A DNA stretch of 64,000 nt from Mollicutes bacterium (GCA_012799635.1 JAAZKW010000010.1:3308-67307), one strand, 5' to 3'; positions 13,957 through 22,350 are shown, counted from the stretch's first letter. Numbers and translations: made by a program. Notes: generated from the sequence alone by a model not told the origin.

Positions 13957-13970
13957 ATTATTTATTTTTT

Positions 13971-14038
13971 TATACCAAATAAAAATGTCTTATATTTAAG
14001 ACATTTAATGTCATTTATAGAGTCCTTGAAAGGATTTG
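13971..14038. repeat. Left direct repeat of the tRNA-Arg island: terminator hairpin plus a displaced 17-nt tRNA-Arg 3' fragment
   Basis: 68 nt. It shares perfect blocks tataccaaataaaaatgtctta (22 nt) and gtccttgaaaggatttg (17 nt), plus the aatgtctta/taagacatt hairpin, with 21112-21178. Confidence 0.85.
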
Positions 14039-14105: not shown

Positions 14106-16061
14106 TTATAAACCCCCTTTATAAAAATAAATTTTCATGGCATTATCTGAATATATTGGTTTAGACACATCAATATCCAAAACTTTACCAATATAATATA
14201 TTATGAATTGTGACGCAATAAGCAAATCAAATTCTGCTAAAATGCCATCATATTTACTTTCAATTAATATATAATCATTATCTAAATACTTTAACAGTTC
14301 AATTTCATATTTAGTAGTAGATTTTTGCTTAAAATATATTGAAAAATTATTTCCTAAATTTTCATAATTAATAAATCTTCCATGAGAAAAATTCTTTTTT
14401 TCATGAATTATACAATTAAATATGCCCGATTCAATAATTTTACTTTCTAAATCGTAACAAGCAGCATCAGTATAATCGCCTCTAAAAATATTCACCAAAT
14501 TATTCTTTTTTATTTTTTCTATTATTTTTTTATCTACTAATCCTTCTATTTGTCTGTCCCAATACATAATTGATTTTTTTATAAAATCGTTAATATCAAT
14601 ATCATAATTTACTTTCTCTAAATAATATTTTAAAAATATTGCTGCTGGGGCTACAGCTCCTTCGAACGAAAGAAATCCTCTCTCTTTTCCTTTATTAGAC
14701 GCAGTTCTATAACTTAATATATTTTCCTTCAAAAAATCTGTTTTTAATACTATATTTTGCAGTTCGCCTTTTGTAATTATATAAACATCCTTCTTATCAA
14801 ACTCTCTAGCGCTGCAAACAATATCATTAGTTGTTCCTGAATATGAAAACAAAATAATTTTATTAATATTACTATTATTTCTATATAATATATCTCTCGG
14901 ATATAATGAATAAGTATTACATCCATATAATGCATTTATTACTTTTGATGAAAAAATTGAACCAGCATATGATCCTCCTGTGCCTATAAATAAACAGTTT
15001 GTATCTTTACAAAAACCGATTTCTTCTAATTTTTTACATGCTGGGGAATTAACAGCATTAATAACTCTCTTTTCTAGATTGTTTATATTAATATTACATC
15101 TTTTTATTTTTTTTCTTTCAATAAGATCAAATTTATCACACGTACAAGTTTCATTTACTTTTTTTAATTTAAACAATGAATTTATGTGTCCTCTTGCGCC
15201 TATTTTTGAAACAACTTTAGCAGTGAGTTTGTTAGATTTCAAATACCACTTTTTTAATTTATGTGAATCATATTTAAAATCGTTTTTTATACTATCTTTA
15301 ATAACACTTGAAATAAATGCATCCCCCGCACCAGTAGAATCTACTACATCACCTTTTAATTCAAGCTCGAAATTATGAACTTTATTATTTGCTATAAATG
15401 TTGCACCATCCTCACCCCTTGTGATAGTCATTAAATTAGGGTTGATGATCTTATATAAGTCAATGTCGTTTTTTAAGTTTAACCTTTTTAAAAGGTAATT
15501 ACTTACTCTTTCATTAAAATTAATTATCTCAAATTTTTGCTTTAACTTTTTTATTATTTCATCATTTGACATATTTTCTAACTCAAAATACTGACCTAAA
15601 TCAATTATTTTTTTATTAATAGTATTATCAATTATTATTTGGTTCTTTATATTTAAATTGTCAAAAACTAAAATATCATCTGTTTTAATGTTAGCAAGAA
15701 CATAATTGGTTTCCAATAAGCTTTCATCATACCATTTTTTACTATTACAAAATGGGCATCTTTTTTTAGAAGTTAAGAACAATTTGCCGTTTTTTTCATA
15801 ATAAGATACATGAAAGCACCTCGTTCTAGTACCTTCAACAATTTTTATATTATCTATATCAACTTTAAGTTTTTCTAAACTTTTAATTGCAATTTTTCCC
15901 TGGTCATCATTACCACAACAAGCAAACACCGTAGTCTTCAACCCCATTTTTGCTAAATTAGCAATTATATTTTGTGAGGTCATACCACCATTTACGCCTA
16001 ATAATTTGTCATCTTTATAATAAAAATCTGTTACTAAATCTCCTATGCTTACTACTCTCAT
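14106..16061 (-). CDS. Fusion protein: PfkB-family sugar kinase (N-terminal) plus a double SIS phosphosugar isomerase/deglycase-like domain (C-terminal)
   Basis: 651 aa. The PfkB signature DSTGAGDAF lies near aa 240. The first SIS motif is FIGTGGSYAGS ... LFSYSGTTND. The second half, LESKIIESGIFNCIIHEKKNFSHGRF, resembles the GlmS/AgaS/FrlB C-terminal SIS domain. CxxC (CPFCNS) and CTC...C cysteine clusters are present. Confidence 0.75.
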   Translation of the reverse strand: MRVVSIGDLVTDFYYKDDKLLGVNGGMTSQNIIANLAKMGLKTTVFACCGNDDQGKIAIKSLEKLKVDIDNIKIVEGTRTRCFHVSYYEKNGKLFLTSKKRCPFCNSKKWYDESLLETNYVLANIKTDDILVFDNLNIKNQIIIDNTINKKIIDLGQYFELENMSNDEIIKKLKQKFEIINFNERVSNYLLKRLNLKNDIDLYKIINPNLMTITRGEDGATFIANNKVHNFELELKGDVVDSTGAGDAFISSVIKDSIKNDFKYDSHKLKKWYLKSNKLTAKVVSKIGARGHINSLFKLKKVNETCTCDKFDLIERKKIKRCNININNLEKRVINAVNSPACKKLEEIGFCKDTNCLFIGTGGSYAGSIFSSKVINALYGCNTYSLYPRDILYRNNSNINKIILFSYSGTTNDIVCSAREFDKKDVYIITKGELQNIVLKTDFLKENILSYRTASNKGKERGFLSFEGAVAPAAIFLKYYLEKVNYDIDINDFIKKSIMYWDRQIEGLVDKKIIEKIKKNNLVNIFRGDYTDAACYDLESKIIESGIFNCIIHEKKNFSHGRFINYENLGNNFSIYFKQKSTTKYEIELLKYLDNDYILIESKYDGILAEFDLLIASQFIIYYIGKVLDIDVSKPIYSDNAMKIYFYKGGL

Positions 16062-16249
16062 TTTAATATCCTCCTTTTGTCATTAAAAATATTACAAAAA
16101 TCGCTCAACGATTCATTGCCTATATAACACTGAATTATATTATGCATATTAAAAGTTAAAAATATAAGTTCGTCTTGAAATCTCTTAGATTTATCTGTTA
16201 TTTCTTTATTAAAATAACTTTCTTTTATCCACATATCAACCTCATTTAC

Positions 16250-17122
16250 TCAAACCGTTATGAAAGATAAAAACACATCCTTATCTTTTATTTCAATAAT
16301 ACAATTATAGCCTGACATAAAAGACTTTATTCTATTATAATTAAGAATATCATTATTATAACAATAAGACATTATAATTCTACCTATATCCAATAATGGC
16401 GAATTAAATCTTACTAACTCAAAGTCCAATATTTTAGGCATATCTTTTTCAAAAAGAATATTATCAGCAGCGAAATCGCCATGAGTCATAGAAATAGGTA
16501 TTTCATCGATTATATTTATTTCACTTAATAATGTTAATATTTTTTGGTGTTTTATTAATAACTCATAATATAGCTTGGGAGTGTTTTGATTTTTCTTATT
16601 GACTTTAGCTTCATATCTTTCAAACAATTTATCAATTGTTGGAATTTTTAAATATTCCCCTTTGTAAGGAGTTTTATCCACGTTTCTAAATAAATAATGC
16701 ATTTTAGCGCATTCTCGCCCAAGATAATATAATTGAACATCATTAATACTTTCTCTTAAAACATGATGACCACTCAAAAAACCTATTAATGCTAAACGAT
16801 CATTACCATAAGGCAATAATATTCTATTTTTCTTATCGGGTTCTATATACTCACAATTTAGATTATTGCAATACATAACATTTTCTATTCTTAAATTATT
16901 TAAAAGTTGATTATCCAAATAATCAGTAGAAAATTCATTGTTACTCATTTTACTCACTTTTCTTGAACTAAATATTTTTATAACATATTTGGTATTTGCT
17001 AAATCTCTACATATGAATTTTTTATTCATCCATCCACCAGACAATATATTAATATCGACAAGCTCAATTCCATAATTTTCATAGATTATAACCTTTAAAT
17101 TACTTTCCACCATTATCACCAT
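16250..17122 (-). CDS. Aminoglycoside/choline/fructosamine-kinase-like phosphotransferase (APH fold), ending at an in-frame TGA
   Basis: 290 aa with the Brenner motif HGDFAADNILF and ILDFE. The same frame stays open for 63 more codons after the TGA at 16250-16252 and ends in an ATGA overlap with the next gene at 16058-16061. Confidence 0.7.
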   Translation of the reverse strand: MVIMVESNLKVIIYENYGIELVDINILSGGWMNKKFICRDLANTKYVIKIFSSRKVSKMSNNEFSTDYLDNQLLNNLRIENVMYCNNLNCEYIEPDKKNRILLPYGNDRLALIGFLSGHHVLRESINDVQLYYLGRECAKMHYLFRNVDKTPYKGEYLKIPTIDKLFERYEAKVNKKNQNTPKLYYELLIKHQKILTLLSEINIIDEIPISMTHGDFAADNILFEKDMPKILDFELVRFNSPLLDIGRIIMSYCYNNDILNYNRIKSFMSGYNCIIEIKDKDVFLSFITV

Positions 17123-18071
17123 CTATATATTCCTTTGCTATTTTAATTATTTCTTCGATTGTTTTTCTATTTGAAAAACCTGCTGCATGTGTATGCCCAC
17201 CACCAGTTAATAATTCTGCTAATTTACTTGCATCTAATTTGTTTTTACTACGTATCTCACCCTTCTTTTTATTTCCAAAATCCATTATTACTATCATAAC
17301 ATCAATATCTTCTCTACTTAAAATAGCAGGAATACATTTTTTTGAAATATCAGAATAAGAGACTAAATTAAATAGTGGTTTTTTCATATCTAGAACTACA
17401 TAATGAAAGTTAGATACTATTAAATTATTATTTATATAAGAAATAATATCCATTTCGTTTTTTGTCTTTTCTAAATAAAATTTCTTTATCAAAAATTCAC
17501 CATCAACATCATTCTTTAATAATTTACTAACTATAGAAAATGTTTTACTTGAAGCAGCATTAGAAAATAAATTAGTATCACTTATTATTCCTGTAAAAAT
17601 AAGTTCAGATATTTTTTTATCACAATTAAGATCCAACTTTTTTATAATGTCATAAATTATTTCACAAGTAGAACTTGCACTATAATCACTTAAAATAAAT
17701 TCAGCATTTGTTATGTTACCATTATGATGATCAATATTAATCCTATAATTTGCATTATTATAATATTCTTCAATAGAATCAGGCAATCTTGAAGTTCTAT
17801 TTAAATCTATTGCTATAAAGGTAAAATCTTTTGATGTAATTTTTTGACACAATAAATCATTTAAATCAAAATAACTAATTTTATTTATACTTTCAGGTTC
17901 AATAAATGCTTTTACATTTTTATTGATTTTTTTTAAACCATACGCTAATGCTAAAGATGAACACATTGAATCATAGTCGGCATTTTTATGTCCAGCAATT
18001 ATAATATCATTTGACAAGTTTTTAAGTATATCTGCTAGCTTTTTTGTATTTTTTTTCTTAACATTTTTCAT
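17100..18071 (-). CDS. DHH/DHHA1 family phosphoesterase (NrnA-like paralogue)
   Basis: 323 aa with AGHKNADYDSMCSS (DHH motif I/II region), NIDHHNGN (DHH) and GGGHTHAAGF (DHHA1 GGGH). Confidence 0.8.
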   Translation of the reverse strand: MKNVKKKNTKKLADILKNLSNDIIIAGHKNADYDSMCSSLALAYGLKKINKNVKAFIEPESINKISYFDLNDLLCQKITSKDFTFIAIDLNRTSRLPDSIEEYYNNANYRINIDHHNGNITNAEFILSDYSASSTCEIIYDIIKKLDLNCDKKISELIFTGIISDTNLFSNAASSKTFSIVSKLLKNDVDGEFLIKKFYLEKTKNEMDIISYINNNLIVSNFHYVVLDMKKPLFNLVSYSDISKKCIPAILSREDIDVMIVIMDFGNKKKGEIRSKNKLDASKLAELLTGGGHTHAAGFSNRKTIEEIIKIAKEYIDGDNGGK

Positions 18072-20389
18072 TTTAATAATCTCCTTTTATATTCTCCTAC
18101 TTCACTATTGTCATTATAATCATGATTTTTTATTAAACACTCAATAATCTTTTTCCTATTTATATCAAATACTCCTATACTGTCTTTATAATCAATCTTA
18201 CCGTCTTTATTTTTCCATTCATTATCTTTCCAACTATAAGGACTGCTATAGCATAATCCATAAATATAATCAAAGAATAAATGAAAATCAACAGCTGCGA
18301 TATTATCTAAAAACATTTGGTCAATTCGATTAATTCCCGGATATCTAACGATACATATATTATTAACATCTATATCACTATCATATAAGGAATTAATTGC
18401 CAATTGTAATGTTTTCCCAGTTAAAACGTTATCATCAAAAAGGTCTACATTAGAATGCCTAAATACATTAGAATTAATTAGTCCGCCATATTCATTAATA
18501 TTAAATTTTCTTAAATCTATAAGTTGTTTATTTGAATATCCAGAAACTTCTTTATTGAATTTAAGAAGTAAAAGGCTTTCAATTGTATTTTTATCAACTA
18601 TCTTTGCAATTATTGGCAATTCGATTCCACCATAGCTTAAACCACATGCGTTAATATAATCATTAGTATTACCTCTTTTTTCTTTATATAAAGATACTGC
18701 CGTATAATTTTCACCAAAATTATCTATTTCACGATATGCTCTATAGTCTTTTGAATAATCCTTTTTTTCATTGCTTAATTGTTCTATCATAAAATTATCA
18801 TTAATTAATTCTTTTGACTTGCGTACTAAATTACACACTAGATCTTTATTTATTAAAACCTTTTCTTCAAAACATATTTTACTCATTATATCTTCTATTT
18901 CAAATAAGATATTATATATATCATTAAAATCTTTATTTTCTTTTGAAGAAATATCTAATAAAATATTATCGTTTACATTATTTGAAACAAGTTTATGATT
19001 CATTATAACTAATAATACATTCCTACAATTATCTAAAATTCCGAGCAACAATTTTTTGTTAATTAAAGAATTTATTTCCTTAGTATTTAATATAGCCTGC
19101 TCAGCATCATTTAAAAACCGAATGTAATTACGATGCCATTCTAACACATTATTTTTTGTTGTTATATCTCTGCCATTTAAACTTATTCTATTTGCTAGAA
19201 AGTAATAATATGTAGACGACCCCCTAAGAAGATAATTATTATCATCTCTTAACAAATAAATTAAATTACCATCTGCTTGTGAATTCCAAAATTCTTTTAG
19301 AGAATTATTTGATATAAGTTCCCATTCATACATAGGTATCAATATACTTCCGCTTGATTTATCAAACAAACCATCTATTCCATCATCGGTTTCGAAATTC
19401 TTATTTATTATTTCATTATATTTTTTTAATAATTTTTTCCTTCCTAATACAATCTTTTTTTCGGCAATTGCAAAATTCAATTTATAACTTAATATATCAG
19501 CTTTTTCTAAACAAACAGTCGGCAAAATTTTAGAATTATTTATTAGCTCGATTGTTGCAACAACACCTTTTAAAATGTTCCCATTTTCATCAAATATTGG
19601 GAAACAAGAATCTACTGAGCCGCTAGTTTTATCAACACTATAACCTTGTTGACAGTTTAACATTAAATAGTCGTTTCCATGAATGTCTCCGCAATCTCCA
19701 ACTCTCATCATCGAATTTTTAGGAACACCTATTATTTTTTCAACCCTTTCAATGGCCTTATCCTTAGTAGTTGTACCTATTTGAATGATAGTATTATCTT
19801 TATATATTCCCCTAGTTAAATAAATTCCTGCAAGCTTATTAGCAGAAATTATTTTTTCAAGAGCATCATTTACTTCTTTGATAATATTGGCATTTTTAAT
19901 TTTAAAAACTAGTCTAATATTAATAATAGTGTTAGTTTTTAAATCTTTTGAATATGTTATATCAAAATAATTGCTATTAATATTTTTAATTGTAGCATTT
20001 ATTTTCATTAATTGATTTAATTCATCTTTTGTAGTTATATAAGTATCTTGAGATAGAAATTCTTCGTATGAAGCACCATTACTATAAAAAAGTCGTGCCC
20101 CATCATTTGTTAATACATGAATTCTTTTAATATCATTATCTGTTATCCCAATTGAATTAGCAATAAAATCATATATATCATTTTTAAAATCGTTTAGTCC
20201 TGTTTCGCCACGCCCTGTTATAAAAACCACTGGCACTTTTCTCTTTAAAAGCTCAATAATTAATTTAATGGCCCTGTTATCTATTTTTTTTGATTTTTCT
20301 TCTGTTAAGGTCCCATTAATATCAAAACAAACGGCATTATACTTTTGTTCAAGTGATTTTTTAAAATTATAATATAGTTCATTTTTCAT
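18068..20389 (-). CDS. Multidomain protein: N-terminal Cof-type HAD-IIB domain, unassigned central region, C-terminal type I phosphoribosyltransferase-like domain
   Basis: 773 aa. HAD motif I is FDINGTLT (Asn at the D+2 position). Motif II is VVFITGRGETG and motif IV is VGDCGDIHGNDYLML. A PRPP-loop-like sequence, VDLFDDNVLTGKTLQLA, lies near aa 650. Confidence 0.65.
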   Translation of the reverse strand: MKNELYYNFKKSLEQKYNAVCFDINGTLTEEKSKKIDNRAIKLIIELLKRKVPVVFITGRGETGLNDFKNDIYDFIANSIGITDNDIKRIHVLTNDGARLFYSNGASYEEFLSQDTYITTKDELNQLMKINATIKNINSNYFDITYSKDLKTNTIINIRLVFKIKNANIIKEVNDALEKIISANKLAGIYLTRGIYKDNTIIQIGTTTKDKAIERVEKIIGVPKNSMMRVGDCGDIHGNDYLMLNCQQGYSVDKTSGSVDSCFPIFDENGNILKGVVATIELINNSKILPTVCLEKADILSYKLNFAIAEKKIVLGRKKLLKKYNEIINKNFETDDGIDGLFDKSSGSILIPMYEWELISNNSLKEFWNSQADGNLIYLLRDDNNYLLRGSSTYYYFLANRISLNGRDITTKNNVLEWHRNYIRFLNDAEQAILNTKEINSLINKKLLLGILDNCRNVLLVIMNHKLVSNNVNDNILLDISSKENKDFNDIYNILFEIEDIMSKICFEEKVLINKDLVCNLVRKSKELINDNFMIEQLSNEKKDYSKDYRAYREIDNFGENYTAVSLYKEKRGNTNDYINACGLSYGGIELPIIAKIVDKNTIESLLLLKFNKEVSGYSNKQLIDLRKFNINEYGGLINSNVFRHSNVDLFDDNVLTGKTLQLAINSLYDSDIDVNNICIVRYPGINRIDQMFLDNIAAVDFHLFFDYIYGLCYSSPYSWKDNEWKNKDGKIDYKDSIGVFDINRKKIIECLIKNHDYNDNSEVGEYKRRLLK

Positions 20390-20396
20390 ATTTTAG

Positions 20397-20913
20397 TCAC
20401 CTCCTTAACAAAAATTCTAAACTTTTAACCTTTCCATCTGTATCATTTGAAAGGTTTTTATCAAAAAGTAATCCATTTCCACCATTTTCATTCCATAATC
20501 TAACATTTTTCTTCAAATCGTCAATTAAAATTTGTCCATTTGGTATAACAACGTTATGTTTTTTTATACCTGGTGGAACAAAAATTACGGGGCAATAAAT
20601 TTTTCTATGTTCTCTTAAATATTCTATTTTAACTTTCATCTCATTTAAAGTATGTATTTTAGTTAAGATAGCAATTTTCTTTTTTAAGGATTCAAGCTCT
20701 CTAATTATTTCAACTGAATTATTTATTGAACTAGCTTCTCTTATTATATAATCCCATTCTTCTTGGTGAATATTAGTATAATCAAAATAATCATCAAATT
20801 CTTTTTTCATCTTTATGATTATGAAAACCAGCATTATATTTTCTTTCTAACATTCTTTCCTCAGAATCAAGTATAACCCCATCAAAATCAATATAAACAA
20901 AATCATCCATCAT
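20397..20913 (-). CDS. HAD-superfamily 5'(3')-deoxyribonucleotidase-like protein (NT5C family), interrupted by a frame change at an A6 tract
   Basis: ATGATG at 20908-20913 follows GGAGG and encodes MMDDFVYIDFDGVILDSE (DxDxV motif I), then stops at 20794-20796. The +1 frame (track ORF 20397-20834) carries the rest (...ILIDDLKKNVRLWNENGGNGLLF). The frames meet at GAAAAAAG (20802-20807 on the plus strand as T6). Confidence 0.6.
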
Positions 20914-20935
20914 ATCAATCCTCCGCCTCGGAAAT

Positions 20936-20944
20936 ATTATAACA
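20936..20944 (-). promoter_or_regulatory. Extended -10 element (TGTTATAAT) for the island operon
   Basis: The reverse complement of attataaca reads TGtTATAAT. It lies about 23 nt upstream of the GGAGG-ATG of the first island gene. No good -35 element was seen. Confidence 0.45.
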
Positions 20945-21111
20945 CACTCTTTTGAGATATTTGGTTTTTTATTTTATTTATATATCAACCCCATTCTTTT
21001 TTTATCAATACATATTGCTTTGCATAAGCATCTTTAATATTAATATGAATTGGCTACTTATTTTAATGATTTATTTCTTATTATAAGAACCCCATAAAGC
21101 GATACCACATT

Positions 21112-21178
21112 TATACCAAATAAAAATGTCTTAAATTATAAGACATTTATACTCACATGGCGTCCTTGAAAGGATTTG
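21112..21178. repeat. Right direct repeat of the tRNA-Arg island: terminator hairpin plus the genuine tRNA-Arg 3' end
   Basis: 67 nt, matching 13971-14038 (see the left repeat). The last 21 nt are part of the intact tRNA. Confidence 0.85.
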
Positions 21179-21234
21179 AACCTTCGACCTTCCCCTTAGG
21201 AGGGGGATGCTCTATCCAGCTGAGCTACAAGGAC
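21158..21234 (-). tRNA. tRNA-Arg (anticodon CCT)
   Basis: The reverse complement is GTCCTTGTAGCTCAGCTGGATAGAGCATCCCCCTCCTAAGGGGAAGGTCGAAGGTTCAAATCCTTTCAAGGACGCCA. It folds as a cloverleaf with anticodon loop CUCCUAA and an encoded CCA. Confidence 0.9.
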
Positions 21235-21246
21235 AGAAAATAGTAA

Positions 21247-22350
21247 TTATCTTAAATACCAAAGATTATTACCATCTTTTGATACACTATCTATAAAACC
21301 ACAGCCTATACATTCATCTTTATAATATAAGACACATGCTTGACCTGGGGTAACACTTTTAACATTTTCATAATTAACTTTTATTTTATTATTATCTAAA
21401 TATTCTATTTGGACAGGATATTCTTTACCTTGATGTCTAAATTTAGCAGTTAAATCTTGATATTTATCATCAGTTAACAAATTAACATTATCTATTATAC
21501 AACTATCTGAATATAAATACTTAGAATCACCATAAGCAATATATAAAATATTTTTACTGATGTCCTTACCACAAACATAATGTCTTTCCTTATTACCTGA
21601 TAGACCTACATTTCTTCTTTGACCTATTGTATAATTCATTAAACCATTATGTTTACCAATAACTTTTTTAGTTTCTACATCTACTATATCACCAGGATTT
21701 GGTTTTAAATAATTTTTAATAAATTCTTGATAATTTCTTTCTCCAATAAAGCAAATACCGGTAGAATCTTTTTTATCAGATACAGTTATCTTAGCTTCTT
21801 TTGCAATCTTTCTAACTTCTTTTTTAGTATAATCTCCTAAAGGAAATAAGACATTATCAAAACTTCCCTTATTAACATCTGCTAAAAAGTAAGTTTGGTC
21901 TTTATTAACATCTTTTGCTTTAAATAATCTTCCATTTTTACTTTTTGCATAATGACCTGTAGCAACAAAATCTGCTCCTAATTTTTTTGCTTCTTTAAGA
22001 AATAAATCAAATTTAATATATTTATTACATAACATATCAGGATTAGGGGTTCTTCCTTTTTTAAGTTCCTCTAAAAAATAAGTGAAAACATAATCCCAAT
22101 ATTCTTTAATAAAATCTACTCGATACAAAGGAATATTTAAATCTTCACAAACTTTTTTAGCATCATTATAATCTTTTTCTTGGGGACATATGTCATCAAA
22201 ATCATTTGGGTTACCTAAAATGTCATTATTGATATTACTATCCCAATTACGCATAAATAAAGCTATAACATCATAGCCTTCTTTTATTAATAGATATGCA
22301 GCAACGGCACTATCTACTCCACCGCTCATTCCAACAACAACTTTTTTCAT
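21247..22350 (-). CDS. mnmA: tRNA-specific 2-thiouridylase
   Basis: 367 aa with the PP-loop VGMSGGVDSAVAA and a typical MnmA length. Confidence 0.9.
   Translation of the reverse strand: MKKVVVGMSGGVDSAVAAYLLIKEGYDVIALFMRNWDSNINNDILGNPNDFDDICPQEKDYNDAKKVCEDLNIPLYRVDFIKEYWDYVFTYFLEELKKGRTPNPDMLCNKYIKFDLFLKEAKKLGADFVATGHYAKSKNGRLFKAKDVNKDQTYFLADVNKGSFDNVLFPLGDYTKKEVRKIAKEAKITVSDKKDSTGICFIGERNYQEFIKNYLKPNPGDIVDVETKKVIGKHNGLMNYTIGQRRNVGLSGNKERHYVCGKDISKNILYIAYGDSKYLYSDSCIIDNVNLLTDDKYQDLTAKFRHQGKEYPVQIEYLDNNKIKVNYENVKSVTPGQACVLYYKDECIGCGFIDSVSKDGNNLWYLR

Follow-up and report, generated by a model that had tools for sequence, protein, structure and literature searches.

What might a single protein do that appears to carry both a phosphatase and a phosphoribosyltransferase (PRTase), and can the copy at hand still do it? 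The question is raised by P0001, a 773-amino-acid (aa) open reading frame (ORF) at 18068-20389 in a 64,000-nt stretch of DNA from a Mollicutes bacterium (GCA_012799635.1 JAAZKW010000010.1:3308-67307; G+C 25%), the whole of which is called the window below. A first-pass annotation, made from the sequence alone, had described the ORF, with no strand given, as a HAD domain joined through an unassigned region of ~250 aa to a PRTase-like domain, and had pointed to an Asn in place of Asp in the first HAD motif. The ORF was established to lie on the minus strand, as do all of the P0001 features given here, and every peptide quoted by the annotation was located in its translation, including FDINGTLT, FITGRGETG, GDCGDIHGNDYLML and VDLFDDNVLTGKTLQLA. 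Based on sequence and on a structural model, P0001 is predicted to join a HAD phosphatase domain to a transferase domain that uses phosphoribosyl pyrophosphate (PRPP) in one chain. The Asn is a private mutation that probably disables the phosphatase.

Domain architecture of P0001

A full-library HMMER search returned relatives of P0001 in 372 clusters (50% identity) at E ≤ 1e-3 and in 116 at E ≤ 1e-30, and many of these were full length (~800 aa) at 24-48% identity. The ORF was therefore taken to be a real conserved gene and not a chance frame. It ends in a TGA that overlaps the start codon of the next gene (ATGA). The AlphaFold model, built on a multiple sequence alignment of 43 homologues, had a mean pLDDT of 91.8 and a pTM of 0.92 with no segment below 50, while a single-sequence run gave a pLDDT of 36. 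Together with the profile searches, the model confirmed the three-part architecture, consisting of a HAD-IIB domain, a conserved helical/beta 'mid' domain and a type I PRTase domain.

The Pfam models did not match P0001 itself, whole or as excised pieces; PHROGs gave no match for the protein, and NCBIfam searches of the pieces found nothing for the mid or PRTase domains. Members of the family are publicly annotated only as 'HAD hydrolase family protein' or 'HAD.../hypoxanthine-guanine phosphoribosyltransferase'. As the first-pass annotation had supposed, no characterised protein with the HAD-mid-PRTase order was found, either by profile search of the PDB or by literature searches for the domain combination, and the family is not in the DefensePredictor paper. 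The families HAD-IIB and type I PRTase are known; for their fusion, the mid domain and the gene cassette in which they occur, no description was found in the literature searched, PADLOC, Pfam or NCBIfam.

The N-terminal domain (aa 1-~285; 19535-20389) is a HAD-IIB (Cof/ISN1-like) phosphatase domain. The NCBIfam model TIGR01484 (HAD-IIB) matched aa 20-245 at 45.1 bits, above its curated cut-off of 41.8, and PF08282 was matched in 32 of the 43 homologues; the model of the Cof subfamily, TIGR00099, scored 29.1 bits against a cut-off of 137. When the family profile was compared with the PDB, YidA (3.5e-11) and other Cof-type phosphatases were found, along with the ISN1 inosine monophosphate (IMP) nucleotidases (6e-7). 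A Foldseek search of the PDB placed P. falciparum PfISN1 (6rme/6rn1) on top at E 1e-8, with yeast ISN1 (8jb3), followed by HAD-IIB sugar phosphatases and phosphomannomutases (PMM). The ISN1 match ranked best among the Foldseek matches listed but was weak globally, with a TM(target) of 0.38-0.48 and 13-16% identity (0.4-0.6 on the target for the ISN1 and Cof/YidA-type relatives taken together), and the Pfam ISN1 family was matched neither in P0001 nor in the 43 homologues. An alpha/beta insert at aa ~95-205 of the AlphaFold model corresponds to a C2-type cap, and the top Foldseek matches were all C2-cap enzymes (ISN1, BT4131, PMM and T6PP).

The alignment located each of the four HAD motifs. 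Motif I, FDINGTLT (aa 22-29; 20303-20326), retains the nucleophile Asp23 and carries Asn25 at the Asp+2 position. The motif II region, FITGRGETG (aa 56-64; 20198-20224), includes Thr58 and the invariant G59 and G61; the motif III region, TTTKDKA (19754-19774), has Lys209, conserved in at least 90% of sequences; and motif IV, GDCGDIHGNDYLML (aa 231-244; 19658-19699), contains the invariant D232 and D240. The Thr/Ser of motif II, the Lys of motif III and the acidic pair of motif IV expected of HAD-IIB are thus all present in P0001. Motif IV (GDxxxxxGND, D-x6-N-D) also shares its spacing with D394...N401-D402 of ISN1. The best structural and profile relatives of the domain are the ISN1- and YidA-type HADs; unlike ISN1, P0001 has its HAD domain fused to a 490-aa PRTase core and lacks the regulatory N-terminal domain of ISN1.

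The C-terminal domain (aa ~561-773; 18071-18709) was assigned to the type I PRTase fold from Pfam, PDB profile and BFVD Foldseek searches. PF00156 was detected in 13 of the 43 homologues (best E 4.3e-6), with P0001 alone below detection, and was already precomputed for two actinobacterial members (P0274/P0275); it was the only Pfam PRTase family found in the 43 homologues. A profile of the last 226 residues matched PyrR in the PDB at E 6.9e-6, with weaker matches to HGPRT, OPRT, APRT and ComF. The Foldseek search of BFVD gave OPRT/PRTase matches at probabilities of 0.92-0.99, yet at weak E values of 0.03-0.05.

The PRPP-binding loop, VDLFDDNVLTGKTLQLA (aa 648-664; 18398-18448), pairs with ILVDDVLYTGRTV of PyrR. 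Its first part, VDLFDDNVLTGKT (aa 648-660), shows the hydrophobic strand, the acidic pair and the T-G-x-T of a PRPP loop; D653 and N654 are invariant and D652 and T657 at least 90% conserved, and the family form ILxDDNxTTGxT aligns with PyrR ILVDDVLYTGRT. After the first strand of the fold lies a second conserved loop, GLSYGGIELP (18614-18643), at the position of the pyrophosphate (PPi) loop. Here G587 and E590 are invariant, G583, L591 and P592 are at least 90% conserved, and the family form GxxYGGIELP aligns with PyrR VGIKTRGIYLA in an alignment that also spans the first helix and strand 1. In all, PyrR residues 13-126 align with the P0001 C-terminus through the PRPP loop, the hydrophobic strand preceding it, the post-strand-1 loop and the order of the helices. 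Among 43-63 sequences that share 21-48% identity, the acidic pair, the T-G-x-T and the glycines at the PPi-loop position vary little or not at all.

A type I PRTase fold with an intact PRPP site was accepted for the C-terminus because PF00156 is found at family level, the profile matches PyrR and the loops are conserved; PRPP-dependent transfer is predicted from these sequence features. The first-pass annotation had proposed a PRTase-like C-terminus with a PRPP loop and had named an HMM or structure search contradicting that fold as the result that would overturn it; the HMM searches returned PF00156 and PyrR, and the proposal stands. Two features set P0001 apart from known PRTases: an obligatory helical/beta domain of ~270 aa on the N-terminal side and a conserved C-terminal extension of ~90 aa (SPYS...Y.D..G.FD).

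The first of these, the family-specific mid domain (aa ~286-560; 18710-19534), was modelled confidently as a long helix, a small beta subdomain and a helical bundle. Its conserved polar residues are D343, G347, E355, R389, G390, Y394, Y395, K446, D453, R456, R553, E554 and D556, with R389, G390, Y394, D453, R553, E554 and D556 invariant. Searches of Pfam, NCBIfam and PHROGs gave no match for this domain, a dedicated profile gave a best E of 0.16 over 35 residues in the PDB, and the best 50 Foldseek matches listed for the PDB were HAD matches only. The annotation had recognised nothing in the ~250-aa middle region; the region is not a linker and makes up a conserved ~270-aa N-terminal half of a larger unit. 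A stand-alone, HAD-less protein of 562 aa aligns with aa 281-719 of P0001 at E 2e-40, and complete HAD-less proteins of 460-590 aa align with the same segment end to end. Residues ~281-719 (~440 aa) are one conserved, indivisible core made up of the helical domain and the PRTase. Because this core occurs complete without the HAD domain, the mid and PRTase domains were taken as the ancestral unit and the HAD domain as an accessory fusion. Elsewhere the core is fused to a metallophosphatase together with a HAD domain, to TIR, or to a Trp/Tyr-tRNA-synthetase-like domain, and the core with HAD is also found fused to PRA-isomerase and RPE-like barrels.

The D-x-N substitution in motif I

In place of the D-x-D that characterises motif I of HAD-IIB proteins, P0001 has D-x-N, codon 25 being AAT (20315-20317). 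The corresponding position was inspected in 57 other homologues, comprising 42 distant sequences (41 Asp, 1 Glu) and 15 close ones (72-84% identity), and was Asp in 56 and Glu in one; all 15 close relatives read DIDGT or DVDGT. Asn25 is thus a private one-base change, a single transition from GAT to AAT. Over the 79 columns that are at least 85% conserved, the only non-conservative deviations of P0001 were this private Asn25 and a clade-level change of an H-G pair to I-A.

The region 15900-21300 was reproduced by contigs of four sequencing runs with 0, 0, 0 and 1 differences, none of them at codon 25. The runs (Logan contigs) come from four separate studies, dated 2016 and 2023, of biogas fermenter metagenomes and one unspecified metagenome. 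An assembly error was considered as the origin of D-x-N and was ruled out, the codon being identical in the four independent assemblies.

The consequence of the substitution may be judged from PfISN1, in which the same Asp+2 to Asn change was engineered as D172N, the counterpart of the natural Asn25. The D172N enzyme showed no activity on IMP at either pH tested, still bound IMP with a Kd(app) of 4.5 µM, and hydrolysed only the activated substrate p-nitrophenyl phosphate (PMC7320144). By analogy, Asn25 is expected to abolish hydrolysis of natural phosphomonoesters with binding kept. The first-pass annotation had suggested that D-x-N shifts the chemistry towards mutase or transferase activity or towards a binding role, and had called for a homologue alignment to see whether it and the PRPP loop are conserved. 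The alignment upheld the PRPP loop (D653 and N654 invariant) and not D-x-N; with Asn private to P0001 and the PfISN1 mutant inactive on IMP, the parsimonious reading is a phosphatase step that is lost or severely weakened, and not a designed mutase or transferase. The substitution would leave the HAD fold and family membership intact, and the catalytic competence of the domain is doubtful.

Two other members of the family had a non-canonical motif I (alignment A1): P0127 reads GIDGT, without the nucleophile, and P0238 reads DVEGT. The phosphatase site is thus lost or altered sporadically in the family.

That the ISN1 form with Asn at Asp+2 still binds its ligand tightly bears on the idea that the PRTase-like domain is itself non-catalytic, a module sensing PRPP or nucleotides in the manner of PyrR or PurR and gating the HAD phosphatase; in that case D25N would leave the window protein either dead or able only to bind. 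The best PRTase matches are indeed PyrR proteins, and P0001 itself lies below PF00156 detection. PyrR, however, retains UPRTase activity, the acidic pair, T-G-x-T and PPi-loop-position glycines of the family are conserved as described above, and the core persists without a HAD domain to gate, in operons with other enzymes. A sensor of this kind was accordingly regarded as highly improbable.

The cassette and its possible product

The neighbourhoods of the homologues were then compared. In 21 of 23 gut-Bacilli loci, the genes stood in the order NT5C-like phosphatase, HAD-PRTase fusion, PfkB-SIS fusion, one of the remaining loci being without NT5C and one truncated. An HTH-WYL regulator lies upstream of the cassette in relatives. 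Between the HAD-PRTase and PfkB-SIS genes is a slot that is either empty or holds a CAT and alpha/beta-hydrolase pair (L016:10309-11629, L022:8400-9724 and L032:9335-10659) or the hydrolase alone (L042:11336-11986); among the 23 loci, DHH and APH genes occupy it only in the genome of the window. The HAD-PRTase/PfkB-SIS pair is kept, at 24% identity, as a two-gene module in Mycobacterium and other actinobacteria. Likewise, a weak PfkB-like gene comes after a TIR fusion of the core.

Conjugative elements were found to carry HAD-less cores, whose operons also contain RelA/SpoT, APH, CAT and 5'-nucleotidase/NT5C genes and genes for a truncated Trp/Tyr-RS-like protein, an aminotransferase, a pyridoxal-phosphate (PLP) decarboxylase, GT2 and additional aminoacyl-tRNA synthetases (aaRS). 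The window APH is homologous to the APH of one such operon, L033 (28% identity, E 1e-34), and the CAT of L032 to the CAT of the same operon (43% identity, E 3e-60). Since homologues recur in core operons that are otherwise different, APH and CAT were regarded as recurrent partners and not as stray resistance genes.

The L033 operon (L033:5581-13915; also L034), on a conjugative element, encodes in order RelA/SpoT-HD-TGS, an APH kinase, the HAD-less core, a truncated Trp/Tyr-RS-like protein and CAT, and continues with a 5'-nucleotidase-like HAD, an unknown protein of 311 aa, Imp-YgjV and GNAT; immediately after it come two additional full-length genes of TyrRS type. The arrangement resembles that of an aminoacyl-nucleoside-type cluster that includes resistance copies.

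The tentatively favoured reading, which falls a little short of probable, is that a mobile cassette, normally under WYL control, makes a nucleoside-like, probably toxic metabolite, with the bifunctional P0001 as its central enzyme. This reading starts from what was observed, namely which domains are present, how well the PRPP site is conserved, which genes are linked, that the cassette is mobile and which lesions it carries, and proposes substrates, an order of steps, a product and its toxicity. The cassette would comprise the small NT5C-like phosphatase, the HAD-mid-PRTase fusion, an optional modify/unmodify pair and the PfkB-SIS fusion. The PRTase domain would use PRPP, or a PRPP-like activated sugar phosphate that the kinase-isomerase helps to prepare, to glycosylate a nitrogenous acceptor, with the mid domain perhaps capping it as an acceptor-binding hood. 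The HAD domain, together with the NT5C-like enzyme, would then remove the 5'-phosphate and release a nucleoside- or ribosylamine-type molecule. PfkB-SIS may act on the sugar moiety, either ahead of the transfer or, if it is an Amadori-type isomerase, afterwards; the PRA-isomerase and RPE barrels fused to the core in one relative could take this role. These fusions and the pairing with SIS point to a phosphoribosylamine or pentulose-phosphate intermediate. The pairs in the slot would add and remove a group, acetyl through CAT and the hydrolase (as esterase) and phosphate through APH and DHH.

Pairs that add and remove a group are the classical way in which a producer masks a toxic product. Because the variable slot carries such pairs, the product is probably bioactive or toxic. 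The recurrent partners, namely APH, CAT, NT5C/5'-nucleotidase, aminotransferase, aaRS-like ligase, RelA/SpoT and extra aaRS, are typical of nucleoside-type natural-product clusters, for which the paired PRTases and HADs of deazapurine (toyocamycin-type) pathways are a further parallel. The closest pathway comparison is with angustmycin, where AgmD, AgmC, AgmE and AgmB act in sequence as epimerase, pyrophosphokinase, APRT-like transferase and HAD phosphatase (PMC8599513); this characterised route shows that a logic of the kind exists. In both cases a sugar-phosphate remodelling enzyme, a type I PRTase and a HAD phosphatase would yield a free nucleoside, with the phosphatase acting after the transferase; in P0001 a single chain comprises the last two, and the cassette has a further, NT5C-like phosphatase gene. 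The cassette differs from the angustmycin cluster in that PRTase and HAD form one polypeptide with an extra domain, and in that remodelling falls to PfkB-SIS and not to an epimerase. The likeness is one of pathway logic, and no sequence orthology to the Agm proteins is claimed.

Several points weigh against this biosynthetic role. Neither Prs-like nor other pyrophosphokinase genes were found among the five genes of the window's island, a RelA/SpoT homologue being present only in the L033/L034 variant; an activated unusual sugar as in angustmycin is then unexplained unless plain PRPP serves. No characterised homologue of the family was found. PyrR, the closest PRTase relative in sequence, is mainly a regulator, and the PRTase domain could be a ligand sensor. 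Finally, the actinobacterial two-gene modules adjoin CBASS, SAVED, SIR2, methyltransferase (MTase)/KAP NTPase and Tn7 genes, and a TIR fusion of the core exists; defence neighbours and the TIR fusion suit an immune effector at least equally well.

The actinobacterial neighbourhoods differed from locus to locus, one having a resolvase and a ResIII helicase, another MTase/KAP-NTPase/M78/PLD genes and another SIR2_2 with a Tn7-like transposon. At L041:2048-8091, the HAD-PRTase/PfkB-SIS pair is immediately preceded by a complete type II CBASS (patatin, SMODS cyclase, Cap2 E1/E2) with SAVED and M78-peptidase genes.

The main rival of the biosynthetic role is an anti-phage or abortive-infection effector that exports no product and, when triggered, stops the phage by draining PRPP or nucleotide pools or by a futile kinase/phosphatase cycle. 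HAD-mid-PRTase and PfkB-SIS would then be a two-gene immune module, with three genes and a WYL regulator in Bacilli. The case rests on the neighbourhoods, the WYL regulator upstream in relatives, the TIR fusion, alongside the metallophosphatase fusion of the core, and the precedent of Retron-Eco11. Distribution fits as well, since the cassette gene is patchy (17 of 201 genomes and 12 of 98 genera of the order; absent from two genomes of the same genus), several copies are pseudogenised, and the insertion sites differ, being a tRNA island in the window and cotE, with a serine recombinase, in L042. The type III-A3 effector of Retron-Eco11, a PRTase-like protein, has been demonstrated to cause abortive infection by PRPP depletion (PMC12746101), and like P0001 it is a PRTase-fold protein on mobile or defence-island DNA. 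The comparison has limits: PADLOC 2.0, whose models cover ShosTA and retron effectors, gave no HMM match at E ≤ 0.01 for any of the five island proteins, and P0001 includes a phosphatase domain and has a kinase-isomerase as partner. A second system considered was ShosTA, whose ShosT is another PRTase-type immune effector; unlike in these two systems, there is no reverse transcriptase/ncRNA or DprA-like antitoxin nearby. Moreover, the CAT, APH, esterase, aminotransferase, aaRS-like ligase and extra aaRS around the HAD-less core are hard to reconcile with pool depletion, and the neighbour evidence comes from a handful of loci (four actinobacterial). An effector without a product was considered somewhat unlikely.

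In L042 (L042:7504-16354), the genes WYL, HAD-PRTase, hydrolase and PfkB-SIS lie with a 552-aa large serine recombinase between two cotE fragments; this cassette is an intervening element in the sporulation gene cotE.

The PfkB-SIS gene prompts a different alternative, in which the cassette salvages or catabolises a ribosylamine, a ketosamine (Amadori-type) or a nucleoside nutrient: PfkB would phosphorylate it, SIS (FrlB/GlmS-like) would isomerise or deglycate it, and the PRTase and HAD domains would recycle the base and ribose moieties. The PfkB half matched models of fructoselysine 6-kinase, ribokinase, R1P-kinase and nucleoside kinase (1e-9 to 1e-14), with every score well short of its cut-off. 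SIS is supported in the orthologues (PF01380, 1.7e-6), with no significant PDB sequence match for the SIS half of the window protein by phmmer. The fused PRA-isomerase performs the same Amadori chemistry, and the hosts have small genomes (1.15 Mb) and are presumably salvage-dependent. Like the FrlD/FrlB pair, the partner gene combines a PfkB kinase with a two-SIS module; unlike them, it has kinase and SIS fused in one chain with Cys-rich inserts, and its match to fructoselysine 6-kinase is weak (1.1e-9; 38 bits against a cut-off of 247). A nutritional role also sits poorly with a cassette that is dispensable and mobile, that most relatives lack and whose insertion sites vary and adjoin defence genes; its conserved part has no transporter or substrate-binding gene, and its CAT, APH and aaRS partners are not catabolic. 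Salvage was thus judged improbable.

The biosynthetic and effector roles can be merged as an inducible chemical defence. A comparable module is that of Ter systems, in which PRTases and HAD phosphoesterases were predicted by Aravind and co-workers to make a nucleoside-like metabolite (PMC7824862). It likewise is a conflict-associated set with a PRTase, a HAD phosphatase and a predicted nucleoside-like product; unlike that module, which is itself only predicted, the cassette has no Ter genes, and PF00156 is its sole Pfam PRTase match. In its most far-reaching form, which is unlikely as it stands, the merged proposal is that the mid-PRTase core marks previously unrecognised, mobile, WYL-switched chemical-defence cassettes, in which stress or phage would trigger the making of a toxic nucleoside or ribosylamine analogue from PRPP and the kinase-isomerase, with interchangeable masking pairs sparing the producer. 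The molecule would block replication or translation of the phage or competitor. If true, this would account for the defence-island neighbours as well as for the partners that recall antibiotic clusters (extra aaRS, aaRS-like ligase, aminotransferase).

If P0001 is indeed biosynthetic, its family would provide the signature enzyme of a so far unstudied route to small molecules linked to ribose. Members of the 372 clusters occur in Bacilli of gut and digester, in actinobacteria and elsewhere; the route would travel on mobile DNA and lie repeatedly among immune genes. The identity of the product would add either a new family of nucleoside-type antimetabolites or a new PRPP-based immune mechanism, and would assign a function to a domain of ~270 residues without known relatives.

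The island in the window

In the window, P0001 belongs to an island of five minus-strand genes, encoding the NT5C-like phosphatase, P0001, a DHH/DHHA1 phosphoesterase, an APH-fold kinase and the PfkB-SIS fusion. The island is bracketed by a direct repeat of ~70 nt, which contains a tRNA 3' end and a downstream hairpin. The left copy (13969-14038) is ~84% identical to the right copy (21110-21180), which overlaps the 3' end of tRNA-Arg(CCT) (21158-21234, minus strand). Within the island no recombinase, integrase or regulator gene was found, and the WYL regulator usual in relatives is thus absent. Two genomes of the same genus were too diverged to show an empty site (MnmA 75-76% identity, without the left-flank gene), and tRNA-Arg was not found downstream of mnmA in them.

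The conserved partner at 14106-16061 (minus strand) encodes 651 aa, a PfkB kinase fused to a (double) SIS isomerase module, as assigned from Pfam, curated HMMs and the loci. On the other side of P0001, the small NT5C-like HAD phosphatase gene (20397-20913, minus strand) is frameshifted. Comparison of its frames with the intact 171-aa orthologue P0282 (L032:6496-7011) placed the DFDG motif in an upstream frame of 39 codons (20797-20913) and the other 145 aa in a second frame (20397-20834). The frameshift sits in an A-run, and the split is identical in the four independent assemblies.

The variable slot (16058-18071, minus strand) is filled by the DHH/DHHA1 phosphoesterase gene (17100-18071) and the APH-fold kinase gene (16250-17122), both identified with Pfam and NCBIfam. 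The kinase gene has a TGA at 16250-16252, followed by 63 open codons to 16058, where the open frame ends in an ATGA overlap with the PfkB-SIS gene. This TGA is a premature stop, because TGA is a genuine stop in this genome. Reading it as Trp, which would rescue the kinase gene, was rejected: TGA ends the P0001 ORF in its own ATGA overlap, and the neighbouring genes are intact under translation table 11.

The NT5C-like frameshift, the kinase TGA and the absence of WYL all recur in the four independent metagenome assemblies, and these lesioned states, together with that of codon 25, are fixed in the populations sampled by the four runs (2016, 2023). The window copy of the cassette is degenerating or rewired; D-x-N is best counted among three lesions of a copy in decay. 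It may be that the acquired DHH phosphoesterase replaces the lost phosphatases. For the window this is sobering, and an intact orthologue would be a better object of study than the P0001 gene.

A search of sequence runs found the P0001 gene in no RNA-seq run. Sequence near-identical to 18068-20389 was found mainly in biogas-fermenter and anaerobic-digester metagenomes from several studies (runs X1-X12), whereas most of the homologues of P0001 come from gut samples.

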